From IMG/VR virus record IMGVR_UViG_3300017989_000330: 29,909 nt of DNA, one strand, 5' to 3'. Below, one piece after another: positions 21,313-28,892 of the stretch. The notes under the pieces were generated by a model. It saw only the letters and a program-made list of their open reading frames with translations. It was not told the DNA's origin and made no database searches. Made by a program: the position numbers and the translations under genes. The stretch is from a virus. Within the stretch, counting starts at the first letter, position 1, and each line of letters opens with the position of its first letter.

Positions 21313-21527
21313 TTTTTTCTCCAGTTAATAATTCCATAAATATTTAACGTTAAAAGTCCAATCGAACAAAACAATAACGCCCAATTTTGCATTAAAATAG
21401 CTTGAATAGCATATAACAAGTTGGCTAAACCATTAGAATAAAAACCTAAAACATTCTTTTCAGCTAGTGCATAAACACCATAAAAGAAACATATATTTCC
21501 TATCCAACCTAAAATTTGTTCAATCAT
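21309..21527 (-). CDS. Small 3-TM membrane protein (PnuC/SemiSWEET-like half transporter)
   Basis: Three hydrophobic helices; ends NIYGIINWRKK. Confidence 0.55.
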   Translation of the reverse strand: MIEQILGWIGNICFFYGVYALAEKNVLGFYSNGLANLLYAIQAILMQNWALLFCSIGLLTLNIYGIINWRKK

Positions 21528-22339
21528 TTATAATTCTCTTTCGCTCTTTCCAAATTTTTATAACTAACCCAACCAGAAATATTATACTTTCTTTTTAATA
21601 ATCTTTGTCCTTCACGAAAATTAATATCTCGATACTTAGTTTTATATTCTTGAGATCTTTCAGTTTGTTTTGTTAATGTGATGTAATCTGTCCAACCACA
21701 CTTTACATCCGCCTGTTTAAGTCGCCAAAACATATCCTCGTGTTCACATAATTTAAAATTTTCATCCCATTTAGTTTTTAACAGAACATCTGTTTTTGCT
21801 AAAAAACAATTTCTCATTATATCAACATCCCATAAATTAATAGGATATCCTTTCTTATCTACGAAACCAATATAATGAATTTTCTTTTTATCAATAAAAT
21901 CTAATTCAAATGAATCGCCTTTAATTAAATTAAGTTTGGCTTCCCATCCACAGATACTTGGGATTAATTCGATTCCGATAATATCAAAATGTCGATCTTT
22001 AATAATTTGCATTAGATTACAAATATTTTTAAAATCATTATTAAATATAAAAGAATCACTTCCCAAAAAAACATAATCACATTTCTTTTCTTTAGCTAAT
22101 TCAACGAGTCGATTTCTTGTATAAGAAAGTCCACAATTAAATGGGTATTCTCTATAATGAAAAGAATCTCTCATTTTTTCTTTCATTTTTAAAACCCATT
22201 GAGCTTTTTTGTCTGAAGGTCTGCCTTGATCGCCAATTAAAATAATACAATCTTTTGTATAATTATCTACAATAGATTGTATTGATTTATACAATAAAGA
22301 ATCTCGAAGAAAAGTAGAAATTAAAATCGCAGTTTTCAT
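21524..22339 (-). CDS. Glycosyltransferase family 2
   Basis: AILISTFLRD...IGDQG...NCGLSYTRN...DSD; C-terminal EHEDMFWR. Confidence 0.8.
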   Translation of the reverse strand: MKTAILISTFLRDSLLYKSIQSIVDNYTKDCIILIGDQGRPSDKKAQWVLKMKEKMRDSFHYREYPFNCGLSYTRNRLVELAKEKKCDYVFLGSDSFIFNNDFKNICNLMQIIKDRHFDIIGIELIPSICGWEAKLNLIKGDSFELDFIDKKKIHYIGFVDKKGYPINLWDVDIMRNCFLAKTDVLLKTKWDENFKLCEHEDMFWRLKQADVKCGWTDYITLTKQTERSQEYKTKYRDINFREGQRLLKRKYNISGWVSYKNLERAKENYK

Positions 22340-22341
22340 AA

Positions 22342-23022
22342 TTAGTCCCATAATGAGAAGAAATATTTTTCTAGTAGTCTCCACCCTTTACGATACTTTT
22401 TACATTCTTGTTTTGTCATTAAATATAATTTTTCTAATTCACGTTTTTTACTTTTACGATTAAATGTCTTAACAAATTGCGCTTCTTTTTTTCGATCTTT
22501 TTCATTTTCAATATAAATCCAACGATACTCTTGAATTTTTCTAGCCGTTTCAAAAGTAAATATAATAGTATTTAATATTTGATTCCATTTCTTCTGTGCT
22601 TTTTTAAAATCTTCATCTGAATCACTTTTACATAAGCCCACGGGAACACCTAATTTATTATTCTTTAAATGATTTAACATTTCTGGTAAAATTTTTGCTA
22701 AAAACCAAGACATGTCCCAAACATCTGAATCTGCCCATCCTCTTTTCCAGCGTTGAGTACCATATTTAAACCAATCATAAAGATTTTCGGGTATTTTAAT
22801 AAATCGTTCAATATTTATTCGAACTGTCAACCACAATTCTTTATACCAAATATCTTTTTTCTTTAAACTGGCAATAAACTCTTCAGTTGTTTTATAAGAT
22901 TTTCTTTTTATCATTTTTGTATTATCTCGTTTTAATTGCCATATATCATAAATATGTTTCCAATTTTGATAATTAAACGACACGTAAATCCATAAAATAA
23001 ATAAAATAGTTAAAATTGGCAT
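22342..23022 (-). CDS. Phage hypothetical protein (226 aa, ends YFFSLWD)
   Basis: SD AAAGGAG; long intact ORF. Confidence 0.7.
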   Translation of the reverse strand: MPILTILFILWIYVSFNYQNWKHIYDIWQLKRDNTKMIKRKSYKTTEEFIASLKKKDIWYKELWLTVRINIERFIKIPENLYDWFKYGTQRWKRGWADSDVWDMSWFLAKILPEMLNHLKNNKLGVPVGLCKSDSDEDFKKAQKKWNQILNTIIFTFETARKIQEYRWIYIENEKDRKKEAQFVKTFNRKSKKRELEKLYLMTKQECKKYRKGWRLLEKYFFSLWD

Positions 23023-23466: not shown

Positions 23467-23496
23467 ATTATAACACACTCTTTTATGATTTGTCAA
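23467..23496 (-). promoter_or_regulatory. Consensus sigma70 promoter
   Basis: TTGACA-18 nt-TATAAT with extended -10 TGn. Confidence 0.8.
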
Positions 23497-24065
23497 GATT
23501 TGTGCAAAAATAAACCTAAATTTTTTGTACCAGATGGATAAATTATCTTTTTCTGAACATTTAAAATCTTTTTAAGTTCTTCTTCTGTCCAATATGAAAT
23601 ATGCGCTTCAGCTTGATTTATAGAATCGCTTCTATGTATCCATTCTTTGCCTAACGGAATGTTAAGCAAGAAGTAATTACTTTTCTTTTTTATGTCATCT
23701 AACAACTCCAAGGCTTTTTGTTTATCAATATGTTCCAAAACGTCACTCATAAAAATTAAAGAATAAGAATCAACTTCTTTTATTTTTTCTTCAGCTTTTC
23801 CGATTATAACGTTATTGTAATAATAACGAGTAGCAACATTTATGTACGGTTCAAAAATTTCAATACAGTCTATTTTCGTTTTCCAATCTTTTTGCTCCCA
23901 TGTGATTTTTCCAAAAATATCAAGGTATTCTCGAAACAAATGCCCCCATTTGGCAAAACCTGCTCCTATTTCCAAAATTGATTTAGGTTTAATTTCCATA
24001 ACCCATCTAATAATGGTTCCTATTTTATCTGGATTACTTGTTGGCATTTTATAAATCCTTTCCAA
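23493..24065 (-). CDS. Class I SAM-dependent methyltransferase (glycan/small-molecule type)
   Basis: ILEIGAG motif I, DCIEIF, MSDVLEH. Confidence 0.8.
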   Translation of the reverse strand: MERIYKMPTSNPDKIGTIIRWVMEIKPKSILEIGAGFAKWGHLFREYLDIFGKITWEQKDWKTKIDCIEIFEPYINVATRYYYNNVIIGKAEEKIKEVDSYSLIFMSDVLEHIDKQKALELLDDIKKKSNYFLLNIPLGKEWIHRSDSINQAEAHISYWTEEELKKILNVQKKIIYPSGTKNLGLFLHKS

Positions 24066-26658
24066 TGTCTTTTAAATATGGCAGAACAGGATACGGTACT
24101 TGAGTTTGATGATACCATTTTCCCCATACTTTGGTTTTTTTGGGCCACGGTAAAAACGATACTGTTATTTCAGAATGTGGAACTTTGGTTGTAATTTCAT
24201 CAAGAGAATCTTGTATATTTTGTATACCTAAATAAATAATTTTTTCTTGAGTATAAAAATACCCATATTTTATCGCATCATAACATGTGGTTCGTAACAA
24301 ACAAAAGGAAATGTTTTTTGAATTTAATTCGTTCACAATAAAATTATAATTTTCTAACATTTTCTCTGTTATAGTTTTTTCTTGAGATGTTTGTATTGGC
24401 AACTTAATGGGTTTCTTCTGAATAAAATACTTTTTTATATGACGCTTAAAAATCTTTTCTCTTTTTTCCAAGACATCATCAACTAAAAATCCCTTAACAC
24501 TTTTATCGTAATCTTTATATATAGTAAGATTATCTTTCATAAACAAAATCGTTTTATAAATTGAATAAATTGAATTAGGATTAAATAATTCTCCATTGAT
24601 ACCCGACTTAATATAAGTGTTCATTGGCGATAAATTAGAAGTTGCTACCGGCGTGTGTGTCAACCACGATTCAAACCAAACTAATCCCTGTCCTTCGTAA
24701 ATGGATGCTAAAAGAAAAATATCCGATTCGTTGTAAATTTTATTTGCTTCAACTGCATTAACCACCCCACGATGATCAATAGTTAAATTGTTAGTTGCAA
24801 ACGACATCAAATCATAAGTTTTATTTGTAGCAAAATCAATAATTGTTTCTGTTTTACTCCCTGCTACAATCCATCTAATCGATGTTTGTTTTGATACTAA
24901 TTGCAGAGCTTTTGCTGTATTGTACCAATTTTTTGAAGGCGTCATTCCTCGTCCTAATGTAGCAACTACTAATTCTTTGTTTTGGGATTTCTGCGGCAGT
25001 GGATAAAACACATTTGGAGACAATCCAATAGGTACAACTTCTAATATCTCGTTTGCGCACGTTTCTTGACAAATTTTTTTCACAGCATCTGAAATACAAA
25101 TAACTAATGTGCATCGAGCCAACTGAGATAATCGTAAATTTTTTGTACTTACGGGCATGGCGATTAGGGGTAAATTTAATTTCTGACATATCGAAACACA
25201 CGAATCTAGTTTTTTTGTTTCACAATTCCAAGTAAATACAAAATCAATGTTGTTTGATTTTAGAATTTTTAAAAAATCTAAATCATCTTTACAATCATAC
25301 ACATTAAAATTTTTAAAAGTATAATTTTTAGTTTCGTGTTGATTTAAATTTATAACAATGTTTTCGTGCTGGGGAAAATAATTAAAATAATGATTATACC
25401 GTTCATCCGACCACCCTTTTATTTGTTCATAAACTTCTATTTTATCCCATGCAATAACGGCGTATTTCAATTTTCTTTTCTCCTGATTTCTGATGTCTCT
25501 TGTATAGGTTGTTCTTATTTTTTCTTTCTCATAAAATATTTGATAACCCTTCGTTCGATTATTTTGATAATGATTAGAATAATAAGTGTTATCTGTTTTA
25601 GAATTATGTTGACACTGCACATTAGCTGTATAAGCAACCTTCCAATGAGAATCTCTAACCTTGAGAAACCAGGGAACGTGTTCTCCAAACTTTAATTCAT
25701 CGTGCCACTTGATTTGAGTTAACATTTCGGTTCGTGCTAAAAAAAAGTTTGTTACACAATCCGCAATACAATACGTGACATTGTTTTTTGTTGTAAATTG
25801 AGTTTTAGTATCAATCACATAATCGTAATAATCTTTTTGTTTATACAAATCTAAATATGGAAATCGATTTGAAAATTGTCCGGCGCACAGCCCAACGGTT
25901 TTATCATTCAACAGAACTGATTCTAATGTTGAAAAAGGACATTTACTATCAAATACCGTATCGTCGTCGCAAATAAAAATGTAGGGCGAATCAACTTTTC
26001 GAATAAGACGATTTCTTGTGTTAGCTAATCCAGAATCATAGGGAACGTTAAAATAGACGTGACCTGTTCGTGTTAAAAAGTTCTTCAAAAATTCGTTTGT
26101 GTATTCGCTTTGATCTCCAACATAAATTTTATACATTCTTTCATCTGAACATTCATAAAGACTTTTAACTAAATCAATTATTTTCTCTTCTCGATACAGC
26201 ATAGGAATCACAACAGTAATCTGTCGATAATTTGAATTATGAATCAAATTGTCTTTTGAATAAAAACCAGAAGAGCGAGGAATAGAGATGTTCTTTTCTG
26301 TAGATTTCGTTGAGAAAATTTTACCGGCGATTATAAATTGTTGTTCTACAGTTTTTTGTTTACTAATTTTATGCTTGACATAATCATAAAAATATACTTT
26401 ATTCTTTTTTTGTTTAATAAAATAAATACCTACCATTTCGTCACCTGACCAAATCTCTATTTTTCTTCGCCAAACTTTATGTACAGTATTTTTAACAAAT
26501 TCTCTGACTTGCCAATAATACTTTTCGTGAACAGCAATAAAATTCTTTTCGTTTAATTTTTGCCCATTATTTAATTTATCTGCCGTGTGAAAAACCGCAC
26601 AAAAGGGAATTTTTTCTTCACTAAATGAATTTGTCACTTGATAAAAAAACATTCTCAT
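24049..26658 (-). CDS. Multidomain glycosyltransferase (GT2 + GT4 + C-terminal LicD-like remnant)
   Basis: GT2: VVIP...DSGLANTRN...FICDDD. GT4: SDIFLLASIYEGQGLVWFES..THTPVATSN. Confidence 0.8.
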   Translation of the reverse strand: MRMFFYQVTNSFSEEKIPFCAVFHTADKLNNGQKLNEKNFIAVHEKYYWQVREFVKNTVHKVWRRKIEIWSGDEMVGIYFIKQKKNKVYFYDYVKHKISKQKTVEQQFIIAGKIFSTKSTEKNISIPRSSGFYSKDNLIHNSNYRQITVVIPMLYREEKIIDLVKSLYECSDERMYKIYVGDQSEYTNEFLKNFLTRTGHVYFNVPYDSGLANTRNRLIRKVDSPYIFICDDDTVFDSKCPFSTLESVLLNDKTVGLCAGQFSNRFPYLDLYKQKDYYDYVIDTKTQFTTKNNVTYCIADCVTNFFLARTEMLTQIKWHDELKFGEHVPWFLKVRDSHWKVAYTANVQCQHNSKTDNTYYSNHYQNNRTKGYQIFYEKEKIRTTYTRDIRNQEKRKLKYAVIAWDKIEVYEQIKGWSDERYNHYFNYFPQHENIVINLNQHETKNYTFKNFNVYDCKDDLDFLKILKSNNIDFVFTWNCETKKLDSCVSICQKLNLPLIAMPVSTKNLRLSQLARCTLVICISDAVKKICQETCANEILEVVPIGLSPNVFYPLPQKSQNKELVVATLGRGMTPSKNWYNTAKALQLVSKQTSIRWIVAGSKTETIIDFATNKTYDLMSFATNNLTIDHRGVVNAVEANKIYNESDIFLLASIYEGQGLVWFESWLTHTPVATSNLSPMNTYIKSGINGELFNPNSIYSIYKTILFMKDNLTIYKDYDKSVKGFLVDDVLEKREKIFKRHIKKYFIQKKPIKLPIQTSQEKTITEKMLENYNFIVNELNSKNISFCLLRTTCYDAIKYGYFYTQEKIIYLGIQNIQDSLDEITTKVPHSEITVSFLPWPKKTKVWGKWYHQTQVPYPVLPYLKDIGKDL

Positions 26659-27548
26659 CTATTTATCCTCGCAATATGTCCAGAGAATCTATTTCGTTTA
26701 ATCATTACGTTCGATGTATTATCAACTATATTTGTATCCTCATAAAAAACAGAGTTTTGGCATTTAGTTTTTAATGTTTGTTTATTGCAGGTTAAATAAA
26801 TCGGATGGTCAATTACTATTCTTATTGTAGCATTACACATCAAAACTTGCCACATATCGGTGATTTTACAGGGGATTGTCTTTAGATGCAAAATAAACGG
26901 CTCTATGGTATCAGTATAAGTTTTATCAAAATACAAATTATACATTTCTTTTGGAAGTTTATTTATAATCCATTCTAAAGCATCAACATTTTTCTGATCA
27001 ACAACAATAGCAAATTGTCGATAATCCTTACAAACATTTTCGGCGTCGTTCCAAGTCCAAGTCGGATTTGGTATTTTCCAATCGCCATAACGTCGATATA
27101 AATGAGCGTCGATGTTTTTTGGTGCATTGAATGTGGAATTGTAATATGTTATTTTTTGAAGAGGAAATATTTCTGATTTTAAATATTTGGCGTTTCTTTC
27201 TAAATCATGTCTGCCGGAAAATTTATTCATAACATAATCGTGAAGAAATAAAAAATTATCTGCTTCAGAATAACAAAAGAAATCAATATGAAACTTTGGA
27301 TTTTCTTTGTCATAGATTGCAATTTCACCATGCCAAATTGCCTTGAATGAAATTCTTGAATCGTTTTTACATAATTCTAAAATGGTATAAAAATCTTTTA
27401 AAAATACACCAAAATCACAATCAACTTCATTGTGCTGAAGAATGTCACCCCTTCTGTATTCTAATAAATTTCCAGTATCTAACCAATAAACAATATTATT
27501 ACTTTCTAATAAATTTTTTATATAGACAACAAAATTTTTACTATCCAT
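26655..27548 (-). CDS. LicD-family nucleotidyltransferase-fold phosphotransferase
   Basis: YWLDTGNLL..RRG.......DCDFG and FNAPKNIDAHL.RRYGDW match the LicD pattern, with divergence. Confidence 0.7.
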   Translation of the reverse strand: MDSKNFVVYIKNLLESNNIVYWLDTGNLLEYRRGDILQHNEVDCDFGVFLKDFYTILELCKNDSRISFKAIWHGEIAIYDKENPKFHIDFFCYSEADNFLFLHDYVMNKFSGRHDLERNAKYLKSEIFPLQKITYYNSTFNAPKNIDAHLYRRYGDWKIPNPTWTWNDAENVCKDYRQFAIVVDQKNVDALEWIINKLPKEMYNLYFDKTYTDTIEPFILHLKTIPCKITDMWQVLMCNATIRIVIDHPIYLTCNKQTLKTKCQNSVFYEDTNIVDNTSNVMIKRNRFSGHIARINR

Positions 27549-28089
27549 TATCATTCTCCAAATCTTCATAATCAAAAATAACACCCTTTAATCGTAAAAT
27601 TTTATAATTATTTTCGCTGGCTATTTTATAACAATATTCTTTGATCAATTCATAAACATCTTGATTGTTATTCACATTTGCACTTAAATCTTCTAAATCA
27701 ATCATAAAAGTGTCTGTGTTGCAGGCTTTCATTATTCGTTTTAAATTTTTTATACCTTTAGCCGATTCTATTTTAGGAATAATCTTAATACTTGATTTAA
27801 GAGTGTCTCGTAAATTTTTTAACAAAACATCAGATTCGGCATTACTAATAGCAAAAAATAAAATTTTGTCCGAATGTTTGTTAGCAATTTTTATAGCTTC
27901 ATCTAACGAAAATGTCGCTTTCGGAATCTTTGTGCGACCAAACGGATAATCAAAAAAGATTTTTTTAGTACATTTTGCTATTGCTTTTTCGACTTTATCG
28001 AATGTATTTTCCCATGCCAAGTTTATTCGAATGATAGTGTTGTTTGGAAGTTCTGAAAATAGAGAAGTTGCATTATTTGATAGAATCAT
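27541..28089 (-). CDS. Pyruvate kinase/HpcH aldolase-like barrel protein (minimal)
   Basis: IRINLAW and IIPKIESAKGIKNL resemble PK RLNFSH and IIAKIE. Confidence 0.6.
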   Translation of the reverse strand: MILSNNATSLFSELPNNTIIRINLAWENTFDKVEKAIAKCTKKIFFDYPFGRTKIPKATFSLDEAIKIANKHSDKILFFAISNAESDVLLKNLRDTLKSSIKIIPKIESAKGIKNLKRIMKACNTDTFMIDLEDLSANVNNNQDVYELIKEYCYKIASENNYKILRLKGVIFDYEDLENDNG

Positions 28090-28342
28090 GTTTACTCACC
28101 TTCCAATAAATTGTTAAATAAAAGATTGCTATTAGTCCCGAGAGAGTGTATTTTAAAATTAAAGGTGGTTGTGTTATTAAAATTGCATAAATTAGCGCAA
28201 TAATGTTACCAATTAAAAACAAAACATACATTTTTGCACTTACCCCTTCGACCGTTTTGGTTTTTATTGTTTTTATTATTTGAGGTAAAGGCATTACGAG
28301 AAAAATTAAGGTAGCTACCCATCCTAAAATTTGCACAATCAT
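28073..28342 (-). CDS. SemiSWEET/PQ-loop transporter (89 aa)
   Basis: LPQIIK..KTK...GVS motif; three TM helices; ATGA-coupled start at 28342. Confidence 0.8.
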   Translation of the reverse strand: MIVQILGWVATLIFLVMPLPQIIKTIKTKTVEGVSAKMYVLFLIGNIIALIYAILITQPPLILKYTLSGLIAIFYLTIYWKVSKHDSIK

Positions 28343-28737
28343 TTTTGTTTTATCCTTTGAATGATGTCGGATGTAGAAATGTGAGGCGTTCTTTCCAATA
28401 TACAAATAGGTATTTTTAATTTAATTGCCGTTTCGTCTGAAATATGATTTTGATCAATTCCTTTAATAAAAACTTGAGGTTTCAACTCTATTAAATTTAC
28501 TGACGGATTAAATGTAGCTTGAGGAACAATTCGACAAGCAATCCCCAATTCTTCTACCCAATCTCTTCGTTCTGCATAATTTAAAATAGGTCGTTTCTTT
28601 CCTTTTTGTTTCTGAATAGCATAATCCATAACAATACCAACAACCAATCGATTACATTTTTTTCGAGCATTCTTTAAAAAACGTATATGCCCTATATGCC
28701 CTAAATCAAATACACCGCAACAATATCCTATTTTCAT
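28339..28737 (-). CDS. TagD-like cytidylyltransferase
   Basis: GVFDLGHIGH (HIGH motif) and RTPHISTSDI; SD GAGGA. Confidence 0.85.
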   Translation of the reverse strand: MKIGYCCGVFDLGHIGHIRFLKNARKKCNRLVVGIVMDYAIQKQKGKKRPILNYAERRDWVEELGIACRIVPQATFNPSVNLIELKPQVFIKGIDQNHISDETAIKLKIPICILERTPHISTSDIIQRIKQK

Positions 28738-28754: not shown

Positions 28755-28892
28755 TTATTCTAGCCACATTTGATATAGTAGTTTTATTTCTTTCCAATTA
28801 AAATTTTCATAGATTAAATAATAGACTGCTACAGGAACTAAAAATAACGAAAAAATTAAAATAAGTGCTATTAATAAAAAAATTCTTAACAT
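28755..28892 (-). CDS. 45-aa membrane peptide (not in ORF track)
   Basis: TAATG-coupled; MLRIFLLIALILIFSLFLVPVAVYYL hydrophobic helix. Confidence 0.45.
   Translation of the reverse strand: MLRIFLLIALILIFSLFLVPVAVYYLIYENFNWKEIKLLYQMWLE

Follow-up and report, generated by a model that had tools for sequence, protein, structure and literature searches.

A four-gene phage cassette built around a pyruvate-kinase-like barrel and its probable role in the phosphodiester decoration of a glycan

The IMG/VR virus record IMGVR_UViG_3300017989_000330 is a tailed-phage contig that was analysed as a single stretch of 29,909 nt with a G+C content of about 30% (referred to here as the window; positions are those of the whole stretch unless another locus is named). 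Between positions 26655 and 28737 its minus strand carries four coupled genes, which encode a nucleotidyltransferase, a PQ-loop membrane protein, a minimal pyruvate-kinase-like barrel and a LicD-like phosphotransferase. Do these genes constitute a single pathway, and if so, what does the barrel contribute to it? An initial annotation had read them as a counterpart of the lic phosphocholine genes in which uptake, phosphorylation and activation were handled by unrelated proteins. Our analysis builds on the identities of the genes, their translational coupling, the homology of the barrel to pyruvate kinase (PK) with its catalytic set retained, and the recurrence of the same synteny elsewhere. Most likely, the phage uses the four genes as a single cassette to attach a phosphodiester-linked group to a glycan. 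That such a cassette leads to a nucleotide-activated phospho-substituent by way of a non-canonical upstream enzyme is well supported, because the genes co-occur in other loci and because the barrel keeps a PK-type catalytic set. The four genes, in order of transcription, are as follows.

28339..28737, minus strand: HIGH-motif nucleotidyl(cytidylyl)transferase of the CCT/ECT/TagD/HldE-II family, 132 aa (PF01467, motifs, matches in the Protein Data Bank, PDB)
28073..28342, minus strand: PQ-loop or SemiSWEET-like membrane protein, 89 aa (PF04193, MtN3_slv)
27541..28089, minus strand: minimal pyruvate-kinase-like (beta/alpha) barrel of an uncharacterised family, 182 aa (AlphaFold2 (AF2) model, Foldseek, VIA, hhalign)
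26655..27548, minus strand: LicD/FKRP-family phosphotransferase with its catalytic domain at about residues 1-165 (profile, Foldseek, motifs)

The translational coupling described in the initial annotation is borne out at every junction. The transferase and PQ-loop frames overlap by 4 nt (ATGA), the PQ-loop and barrel frames by 17 nt, and the barrel and LicD frames by 8 nt, and a 4-nt overlap joins the stop of LicD to the start of a GT2-GT4 glycosyltransferase fusion gene, such that the cassette does lie directly upstream of the fusion. The start codons chosen are each preceded, at a distance of 7-9 nt, by a purine-rich stretch and are consistent with the N-termini of homologues.

A pyruvate-kinase-like barrel without lid or C domain

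The barrel is the least familiar of the four proteins, and its sequence alone scores close to the cut-offs of two families: 27.2 bits with the PK Pfam model (PF00224; cut-off 30) and 25.7 bits with HpcH_HpaI (PF03328; cut-off 25), the latter over 70 residues only. The structural comparisons are more decisive. An AF2 model with a predicted local distance difference test (pLDDT) score of 88 shows a compact barrel in which the last two strands form a hairpin. PK is the first match both in Foldseek (6.7e-6) and in VIA (Z 14.8, 165 residues aligned, root-mean-square deviation 3.0), and is followed in VIA by HpcH/CitE-type barrels at Z 12-13 (12-13.4 with SbnG, macrophomate synthase, CitE and HpaI-type aldolases) and then by barrels of the PEP-mutase/isocitrate-lyase type at Z 9-10 (PEP, phosphoenolpyruvate). 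Profile searches of PDB sequences gave the same picture, with a first barrel profile (A1) reaching PK at 2.9e-7 and finding solely PKs among the 60 matches listed, and a larger profile (A2) finding PKs and a single HpcH-type entry, macrophomate synthase (1.2e-4), among the matches listed. Finally, hhalign aligns the barrel family with a lid-less PK at 96.8% (E 2.4e-10), pairing the barrel motifs RIN-x-AW, LD-x-P, AISN, PKIE and MLD-x-ED-L with the PK motifs RIN-x-x-x-G, FD-x-K, AVSF, AKIE and MVARGDL, respectively. Of the minimal PK/HpcH-like barrel described in the initial annotation, the PK likeness is thus upheld, and as judged by sequence and predicted fold the barrel is a true homologue of the PK A domain.

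The residues that PK uses for phosphoryl transfer are also in place. R21, N23, D47, K106, E108 and D134 of the barrel align to the RxN, D, KxE and D positions of PK, which we take to be R73, N75, D113, K270, E272 and D296, residues that in PK bind the PEP phosphate, the monovalent cation and Mg. Among 92 aligned members of the family, R21, N23, A25, D47, R52, K54, P56, K106, E108, D131, D134 and G169 are invariant; the presence of catalytic residues, which had been set as a test of the initial reading, is therefore confirmed across the family. Four residues, W26, R52, K54 and D131, are specific to the barrel relative to PK. The acidic pair D131/E133 and the Trp could suit an amino-alcohol, only a hint that stands beside the fact that ECT is the best structural relative of the transferase.

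The barrel is nonetheless not a PK in the defined sense. PK has a complete A domain, a lid (B domain) and a C domain and exceeds the Pfam cut-off, whereas the 182-aa barrel has neither lid nor C domain, scores under that cut-off, and lacks both the ATEML motif, with its Thr proton donor, and the MLSxETA motif; the alignment to the lid-less PK stops before these two motifs. Lid-less PKs of 227-270 aa are themselves found in the Saccharibacteria phylum (L094:1318-2019, L096:1306-2118, L098:1294-1980 and L100:1303-1986), and these have no lid or C domain and retain all of the PK motifs (RINxS, KIE, MVARGDLG, ATEML and MLSEETA).

The barrel family is large and mostly viral. A word-indexed search recovered only three relatives, and a profile search of 1.84 billion representatives recovered 588 clusters (50% identity) at E≤1e-3, 101 of them at E≤1e-30; most are from uncultured viruses and almost all members are 165-190 aa long. 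There is no functional name for the family in the sources searched, no Pfam model of its own among the matches, and no description of it in the literature searched. Its relatives are named in databases only as 'hypothetical', 'pyruvate kinase' or 'citrate lyase beta subunit', and its protein atlas entries are viral hypothetical clusters only. One relative (P0034) has an HNH endonuclease domain ahead of the barrel. Cellular members are sparse: of the 401 genomes sampled from the Saccharibacteria phylum, two encode a barrel of about 178 aa, in both cases next to the transferase, and the eight other matches are full or lid-less PKs; in Nitrososphaeria the barrel is present in 8 of 201 genomes.

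Genes flanking the barrel and their recurrence in other loci

The transferase is a clear member of Pfam family PF01467 (51.7 bits, cut-off 21; 1.3e-13). Its N-terminus, MKIGYCC, is preceded by GAGG, and its GHIGH and RTPHISTS motifs can be read directly. It falls under every equivalog cut-off, including those of rfaE_dom_II (HldE domain II; 81.5 bits, 4.9e-23, cut-off 181.5) and the TagD equivalog TIGR01518 (48 bits, 1.2e-12, cut-off 165.4). The closest match among solved structures is human ECT (2.4e-16; 63 bits, compared with 36 bits for TagD), followed by the RfaE-like protein 3glv (1.4e-9), TagD (5e-8), the cytidylyltransferase domain of Fom1 (5x3d; 4.7e-7) and then CCT. The name 'TagD-like' given earlier is thus partly right: it places the protein in the correct HIGH-motif family, although both HldE domain II and ECT outscore TagD. 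Immediately upstream on the same strand is a strongly hydrophobic open reading frame of 45 codons (28755-28892) that may encode a small membrane protein of the transferase operon.

The PQ-loop protein is a single 89-aa unit with a P-Q motif and about three hydrophobic segments. It scores well above the cut-offs of PF04193 (56 bits, cut-off 22; 3.3e-15) and MtN3_slv (33.5 bits, cut-off 23.7; 4.4e-8), and under that of the NCBIfam model SemiSWEET_2 (42.6 bits, cut-off 80). Of the SemiSWEET assignment, therefore, the Pfam families stand and the narrower NCBIfam identity does not.

The LicD-like sequence taken alone matches Pfam LicD (PF04991) at its C-terminal end only (E 0.0099; 16.4 bits, cut-off 22.6) and the catalytic domain of FKRP at 7.7e-4. 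A profile from a 15-sequence alignment (A3), in which this protein is joined by three of its close relatives and eleven viral proteins encoded near the barrel, covers the whole FKRP catalytic domain at 1.8e-15. The alignment contains, in order, the motifs G-T-x-L-G-A-x-R, F-I-x-W-D-D-D-x-D and Y-G-x-D-W-K-x-P, and D43 and D45, which form the D-x-D metal motif, are invariant in it. An AF2 model is good at residues 1-165 and poor beyond 170, and its top ten Foldseek matches are all FKRP (5e-8, 22% identity). With the profile and the predicted fold, which is of the nucleotidyltransferase type, both leading to FKRP, the product of 26655-27548 belongs to the LicD/FKRP family, as had been proposed. 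Its C-terminal segment of about 130 residues (approximately 170-297, window 26655-27040) has no family match and a pLDDT below 50, and is common to only the closest relatives, P0005-P0007.

A scan of viral contigs revealed 44 barrel loci, which reduce to 39 non-redundant loci, the window included, when barrels of more than 90% identity are collapsed. Open reading frames around the barrels were called and clustered, local profiles were built, and the cluster representatives were named with Pfam and NCBIfam. A transferase of the window type lies within two genes of the barrel in 17 of the 39 loci, nearly always directly upstream, and a second HIGH nucleotidyltransferase, of about 116 aa, lies within the same distance in nine, so that 26 loci carry one or the other. 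The 11 loci with a LicD-like gene all have the transferase as well. In ten individual loci, including the window, LicD is directly downstream of the barrel, and L004 has it two genes downstream; in L005 (1499-4225) and L020 (6480-9215) the gene that directly follows the barrel encodes a 908-911-aa fusion of a LicD-like domain with two GT2 domains. L007 has the exact order of the window, transferase-PQ-barrel-LicD, with overlapping genes. The survey of gene neighbourhoods proposed in the initial annotation thus finds the genes together elsewhere, as three-gene sets in 11 of 39 loci and as the full four-gene order in L007.

The PQ-loop gene is the least constant of the four (5/39 loci) and we regard it as accessory for this reason. 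Where it occurs it can be closely tied to the barrel, being located directly before it in the window, L003 and L007, and the database protein P0017 is an in-frame PQ-loop-barrel fusion in which the barrel's own Met is retained.

The linkage of transferase, barrel and LicD is old, since the median pairwise identity of barrels between loci is only 39%, and in a barrel tree the loci with transferase and LicD are diverse and unresolved and do not form one recent clade. The last gene of the set can also be exchanged. A TagF-like gene takes the place of LicD in L001 and L038, and in a Saccharibacteria genome (L046) an adjacent transferase and barrel face a TagF-family gene (PF04464, 1.6e-56), with a PQ-loop gene 4.4 kb from the pair; in a second genome of that phylum (L092) the transferase adjoins the barrel. 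LicD and TagF are unrelated consumers of CDP-alcohols, and their interchange points to a CDP-linked product, CDP-X.

A different set of partners is seen in a tight marine viral clade (L024/L025:5214-6522, L012, L032-L034, L037, L041 and L042) and in a marine group III euryarchaeote (L052:5185-6567). In this clade the barrel is accompanied by the HIGH nucleotidyltransferase of about 116 aa, an APS-kinase-like protein and Sulfotransfer_2, often with a carbamoyltransferase, DegT and an epimerase; overall, a sulfotransferase lies within five genes of the barrel in nine of the 39 viral loci. The module could make a donor of the 3'-phosphoadenosine 5'-phosphosulfate (PAPS) type or of the phosphoramidate type (3'-phospho-NDP-X). 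In Nitrososphaeria the barrel adjoins Sulfotransfer_1 within surface-glycan islands (L051:1710-3136, L062:7521-8996, L064:7563-9022, L066:7363-8877 and L048), and in L051 aroA and aroC flank the inserted pair. These sulfotransferase associations, viral and thaumarchaeal, indicate that the role of the barrel is broader than that of a LicA substitute. A part for the barrel in PAPS synthesis was considered and rejected.

Two thaumarchaeal loci (L049:1270-4374 and L066:2418-5580) also encode an 814-831-aa protein with PPDK_N and phosphohistidine domains that adjoins a class-I amidotransferase/peptidase C26, and in L049 this pair comes directly after the barrel; it resembles Cj1418 and Cj1417 of the Campylobacter phosphoramidate pathway. 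We rejected the idea that the barrel serves in such loci (L049, L066) as the PEP domain split off from a PPDK-like enzyme, as an ATP-grasp/His-domain partner is present in no viral locus.

Proposed pathway and alternative explanations

A plausible scenario, and the one that we favour while holding it to be tentative, is that the barrel makes a phospho-substrate, the transferase activates it to an NDP-linked donor, and the LicD protein transfers it to a glycan. In the first step the barrel would generate X-P by Mg-dependent phosphoryl transfer from PEP or a nucleoside triphosphate (NTP), where X may be an alcohol, an amino-alcohol, a polyol or a sugar. The HIGH transferase would then join X-P with CTP, or possibly ATP, to give NDP-X, from which the LicD/FKRP-type enzyme would move P-X onto a sugar acceptor with release of NMP. 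The PQ-loop protein would be accessory, and may bring X across the membrane or tether the barrel there. Synteny and residue conservation are our grounds for inferring what the chemical steps are, which donor and which X are used, in which direction transport runs and which glycan is modified. Of the initial reading, PEP as the donor, import by the SemiSWEET, a phage-built glycan as the target and a self-contained pathway go beyond what the analysis supports.

The acceptor would probably be built by the products of three further genes of the window.

24049..26658, minus strand: GT2 and GT4 glycosyltransferase fusion, 869 aa (PF00535 at residues 148-302, PF00534 at residues 559-709)
23493..24065, minus strand: protein like methyltransferases dependent on S-adenosylmethionine, 190 aa (PF13489 at 5.1e-7)
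21524..22384, minus strand: second GT2-like glycosyltransferase, 286 aa (PF00535 at 9e-4, under the cut-off; BLASTP matches to GT2 proteins of related loci)

The methyltransferase-like gene overlaps the end of the fusion gene, and all of these genes belong to a minus-strand block that begins at about 29.8 kb and ends at 17.7 kb; the tape-measure protein and a Laminin_G tail protein are products of a plus-strand block. Towards the C-terminal end of the fusion, at residues 767-795 or so (window 24049-24360), 29 residues bear a faint likeness to the first helix and strand of LicD. A LicD remnant at this position was considered and rejected, as the LicD profile is not significant there (best domain score -1.4 bits). 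Among 50,697 cultured phage records there was no match to the region by megablast, nor to three barrels and one structural protein by tblastn.

Casting the barrel as the supplier of the substrate is favoured by its position between the transferase and LicD, by the use of two unrelated CDP-alcohol phosphotransferases (LicD and TagF) as alternative consumers, by its retention of the PK phosphoryl-transfer set together with the loss of the parts specific to the PK reaction, and by analogy with a phage module in which a bifunctional HAD/APH-like enzyme, a CTP_transf protein and a glycosyltransferase install heptose on phage DNA, both upstream enzymes being needed (bioRxiv 10.1101/2023.12.21.572611). 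The sulfotransferase-linked viral clade would fit as well if its APS-kinase-like enzyme were to 3'-phosphorylate NDP-X. Such chemistry is familiar from Cj1415, which 3'-phosphorylates an NDP-X donor.

Several points weigh against this scenario. We know of no PK-fold enzyme for which the phosphorylation of a free alcohol by PEP is the normal reaction, and if X-P were glycerol 3-phosphate it would come from the host and no kinase would be needed. The PQ-loop gene is missing from most loci. The pairing of the barrel with a short nucleotidyltransferase, an APS-kinase-like protein and sulfotransferases in one viral clade may reflect a more general job, and the thaumarchaeal barrels beside Sulfotransfer_1 have no adjacent nucleotidyltransferase and are not accounted for. 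Lastly, there are viral modules with transferase and LicD and no barrel (L076, L080 and L082), and some barrel-free LicD modules join a HIGH transferase to genes for a B12-radical-SAM enzyme, NeuB or a CMP-sugar synthetase.

Two other explanations are about equally unlikely, and in the first the barrel is a minimal true PK that uses PEP to turn CDP or ADP back into CTP or ATP, beside enzymes that consume NTPs. The conserved phosphoryl-transfer residues agree with this, the invariant R52-x-K54 loop at the site of lid insertion could stand in for the lid Arg and Lys, and lid-less PKs do exist in candidate-phyla bacteria. Moreover, the barrel accompanies every type of NTP-consuming module seen, whether with a cytidylyltransferase, with a short nucleotidyltransferase and APS-kinase-like protein, or with sulfotransferases, and no canonical PK above the Pfam cut-off was seen in three barrel-carrying genomes (G002, Saccharibacteria; G003, marine group III; and G097, a 1.6-Mb thaumarchaeote), two of which are small and probably incomplete assemblies. 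However, the lid-less PKs keep both ATEML and MLSxETA whereas the barrel has lost them, and it has acquired W26, R52, K54 and D131 as residues of its own. A general replacement of PK is also at odds with its presence in so few Nitrososphaeria, and energy regeneration leaves its translational coupling within one pathway and its fusion to the PQ-loop protein unexplained.

The second of these explanations, also improbable, is that the transferase and LicD are by themselves the pathway, working from a phospho-alcohol of the host, for instance glycerol 3-phosphate or phosphoethanolamine, with the barrel and PQ-loop protein otherwise employed in the glycan island, for example in handling by-products, modifying the acceptor or targeting the membrane. 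TagD-type and ECT-type enzymes do act on metabolites that cells already make, and the genes can be found apart, as transferase and LicD without the barrel in the modules noted above, and as the barrel next to sulfotransferases without the transferase. Against this, many divergent loci place the barrel between transferase and LicD, in reading frames that overlap, and every one of the LicD-containing barrel loci has the transferase.

It is considerably less probable that the barrel is a PEP-mutase-like enzyme and that the cassette installs a phosphonate, in parallel to Fom1 of fosfomycin biosynthesis. The transferase matches the cytidylyltransferase domain of Fom1, PEP mutase shares the barrel superfamily, and Thaumarchaeota are producers of methylphosphonate. 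A set of barrel-free viral LicD modules (L072-L076; for example L076:1138-6384) has a B12-binding radical-SAM enzyme and a 233-aa protein before LicD. L076 also has a HIGH transferase, a weak match to class-V aminotransferases and an FkbM methyltransferase, and L072 has a sulfotransferase after LicD; by analogy, this group resembles Fom3-type chemistry on a cytidylylated phosphonate. By both sequence and fold, however, PEP mutase is further from the barrel than PK and HpcH are, the PEP-mutase signature is not seen in the barrel, and phosphonopyruvate decarboxylase or another pulling enzyme was not found in the window. Least probable of all is that the barrel is a pyruvate aldolase or lyase of the HpcH/HpaI or CitE type that makes or cleaves a 2-keto acid of the glycan, for although its HpcH_HpaI score just exceeds the cut-off, its fold is close to those enzymes and the Glu and Asp metal ligands are in common, its RxN and KxE motifs are of the PK type, PKs account for all but one of its listed PDB profile matches, and a phosphate-free aldol product would not feed a HIGH nucleotidyltransferase.

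The barrel as a phosphorylating enzyme at the head of an activation pathway therefore remains our preferred scenario. A bolder generalisation, which we offer as speculation and consider unlikely as a whole, is that lid-less PK barrels of about 175 aa represent a new enzyme family, found mainly in viruses, whose members phosphorylate small acceptors other than nucleotides and may take the phosphate from PEP. With HIGH transferases they would form a portable two-gene module, from X to X-P to NDP-X, that viruses, candidate-phyla bacteria and marine archaea plug into LicD, TagF or (through a 3'-phosphorylated donor) sulfotransferase-fold enzymes; with a PQ-loop protein fused or adjacent, the barrel would trap imported substrate in the manner of a minimal PEP-driven group translocation.

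Relationship to known systems

Phosphodiester-linked groups on surface glycans, among them phosphocholine, glycerol phosphate and ribitol phosphate, control the adsorption of phages, recognition by the immune system and the function of the cell wall. The biosynthesis of their donors was thought to be well catalogued, and yet a family of 588 clusters appears to be a core part of such pathways. Defining the reaction of the barrel would give a name to hundreds of viral 'hypothetical proteins', show what a PK barrel is capable of once the lid and the last two catalytic motifs are gone, and reveal the phage decoration and its target, be it the host envelope or the phage's own virion.

The closest parallel in logic is the lic1 phosphocholine pathway of Haemophilus and Streptococcus, whose operon has the same number of genes and likewise joins a membrane transporter and an upstream enzyme to a nucleotidyltransferase and a transferase of the LicD family. 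Homology between the two systems is confined to the LicD step, and the likeness is otherwise one of pathway logic. LicA (APH/choline-kinase fold), LicB (DMT permease) and LicC (GT-A-like) were not found in the cassette, where the PK-like barrel, the PQ-loop protein and the HIGH-motif transferase take their places, and most related loci lack the transporter. The initial claim that three steps are replaced by unrelated folds is accordingly correct as to the absence of the three Lic proteins and overstated for activation, since the HIGH transferase is a homologue of CCT, ECT, TagD and HldE-II and not a new fold for that step.

Systems of the teichoic-acid type (TagD or TarI/J with TagF/TarL) and mammalian FKTN/FKRP, which use CDP-ribitol, have a HIGH cytidylyltransferase that feeds a CDP-alcohol phosphotransferase, as proposed here. 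FKRP is the nearest solved relative of the window LicD-like protein, and TagF-like enzymes replace LicD in sister loci. In contrast to the window, these systems have no PK-like barrel, and the window transferase does not reach the TagD equivalog cut-off. Relative to the A domain of PK (EC 2.7.1.40), the barrel is homologous and aligns the Arg, Asn, Asp, Lys, Glu and Asp of the PEP/Mg site, and differs in its length of about 180 aa, the absence of the B and C domains, and a hairpin of the last two strands without ATEML and MLSxETA. Fom1 couples a HIGH-type cytidylyltransferase to a PEP-binding barrel of the same superfamily, whereas in the window the barrel is PK-like, the genes are separate and no downstream phosphonate enzymes are present. 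In the phage DNA-heptosylation module the HIGH nucleotidyltransferase likewise depends on a phage enzyme with a kinase-like domain, a slot held here by the barrel; the upstream enzyme there is a HAD/APH-like fusion and the consumer a DNA glycosyltransferase and not a LicD-type enzyme. The cassette is thus a variant of a known pathway logic that is built around an uncharacterised enzyme family.

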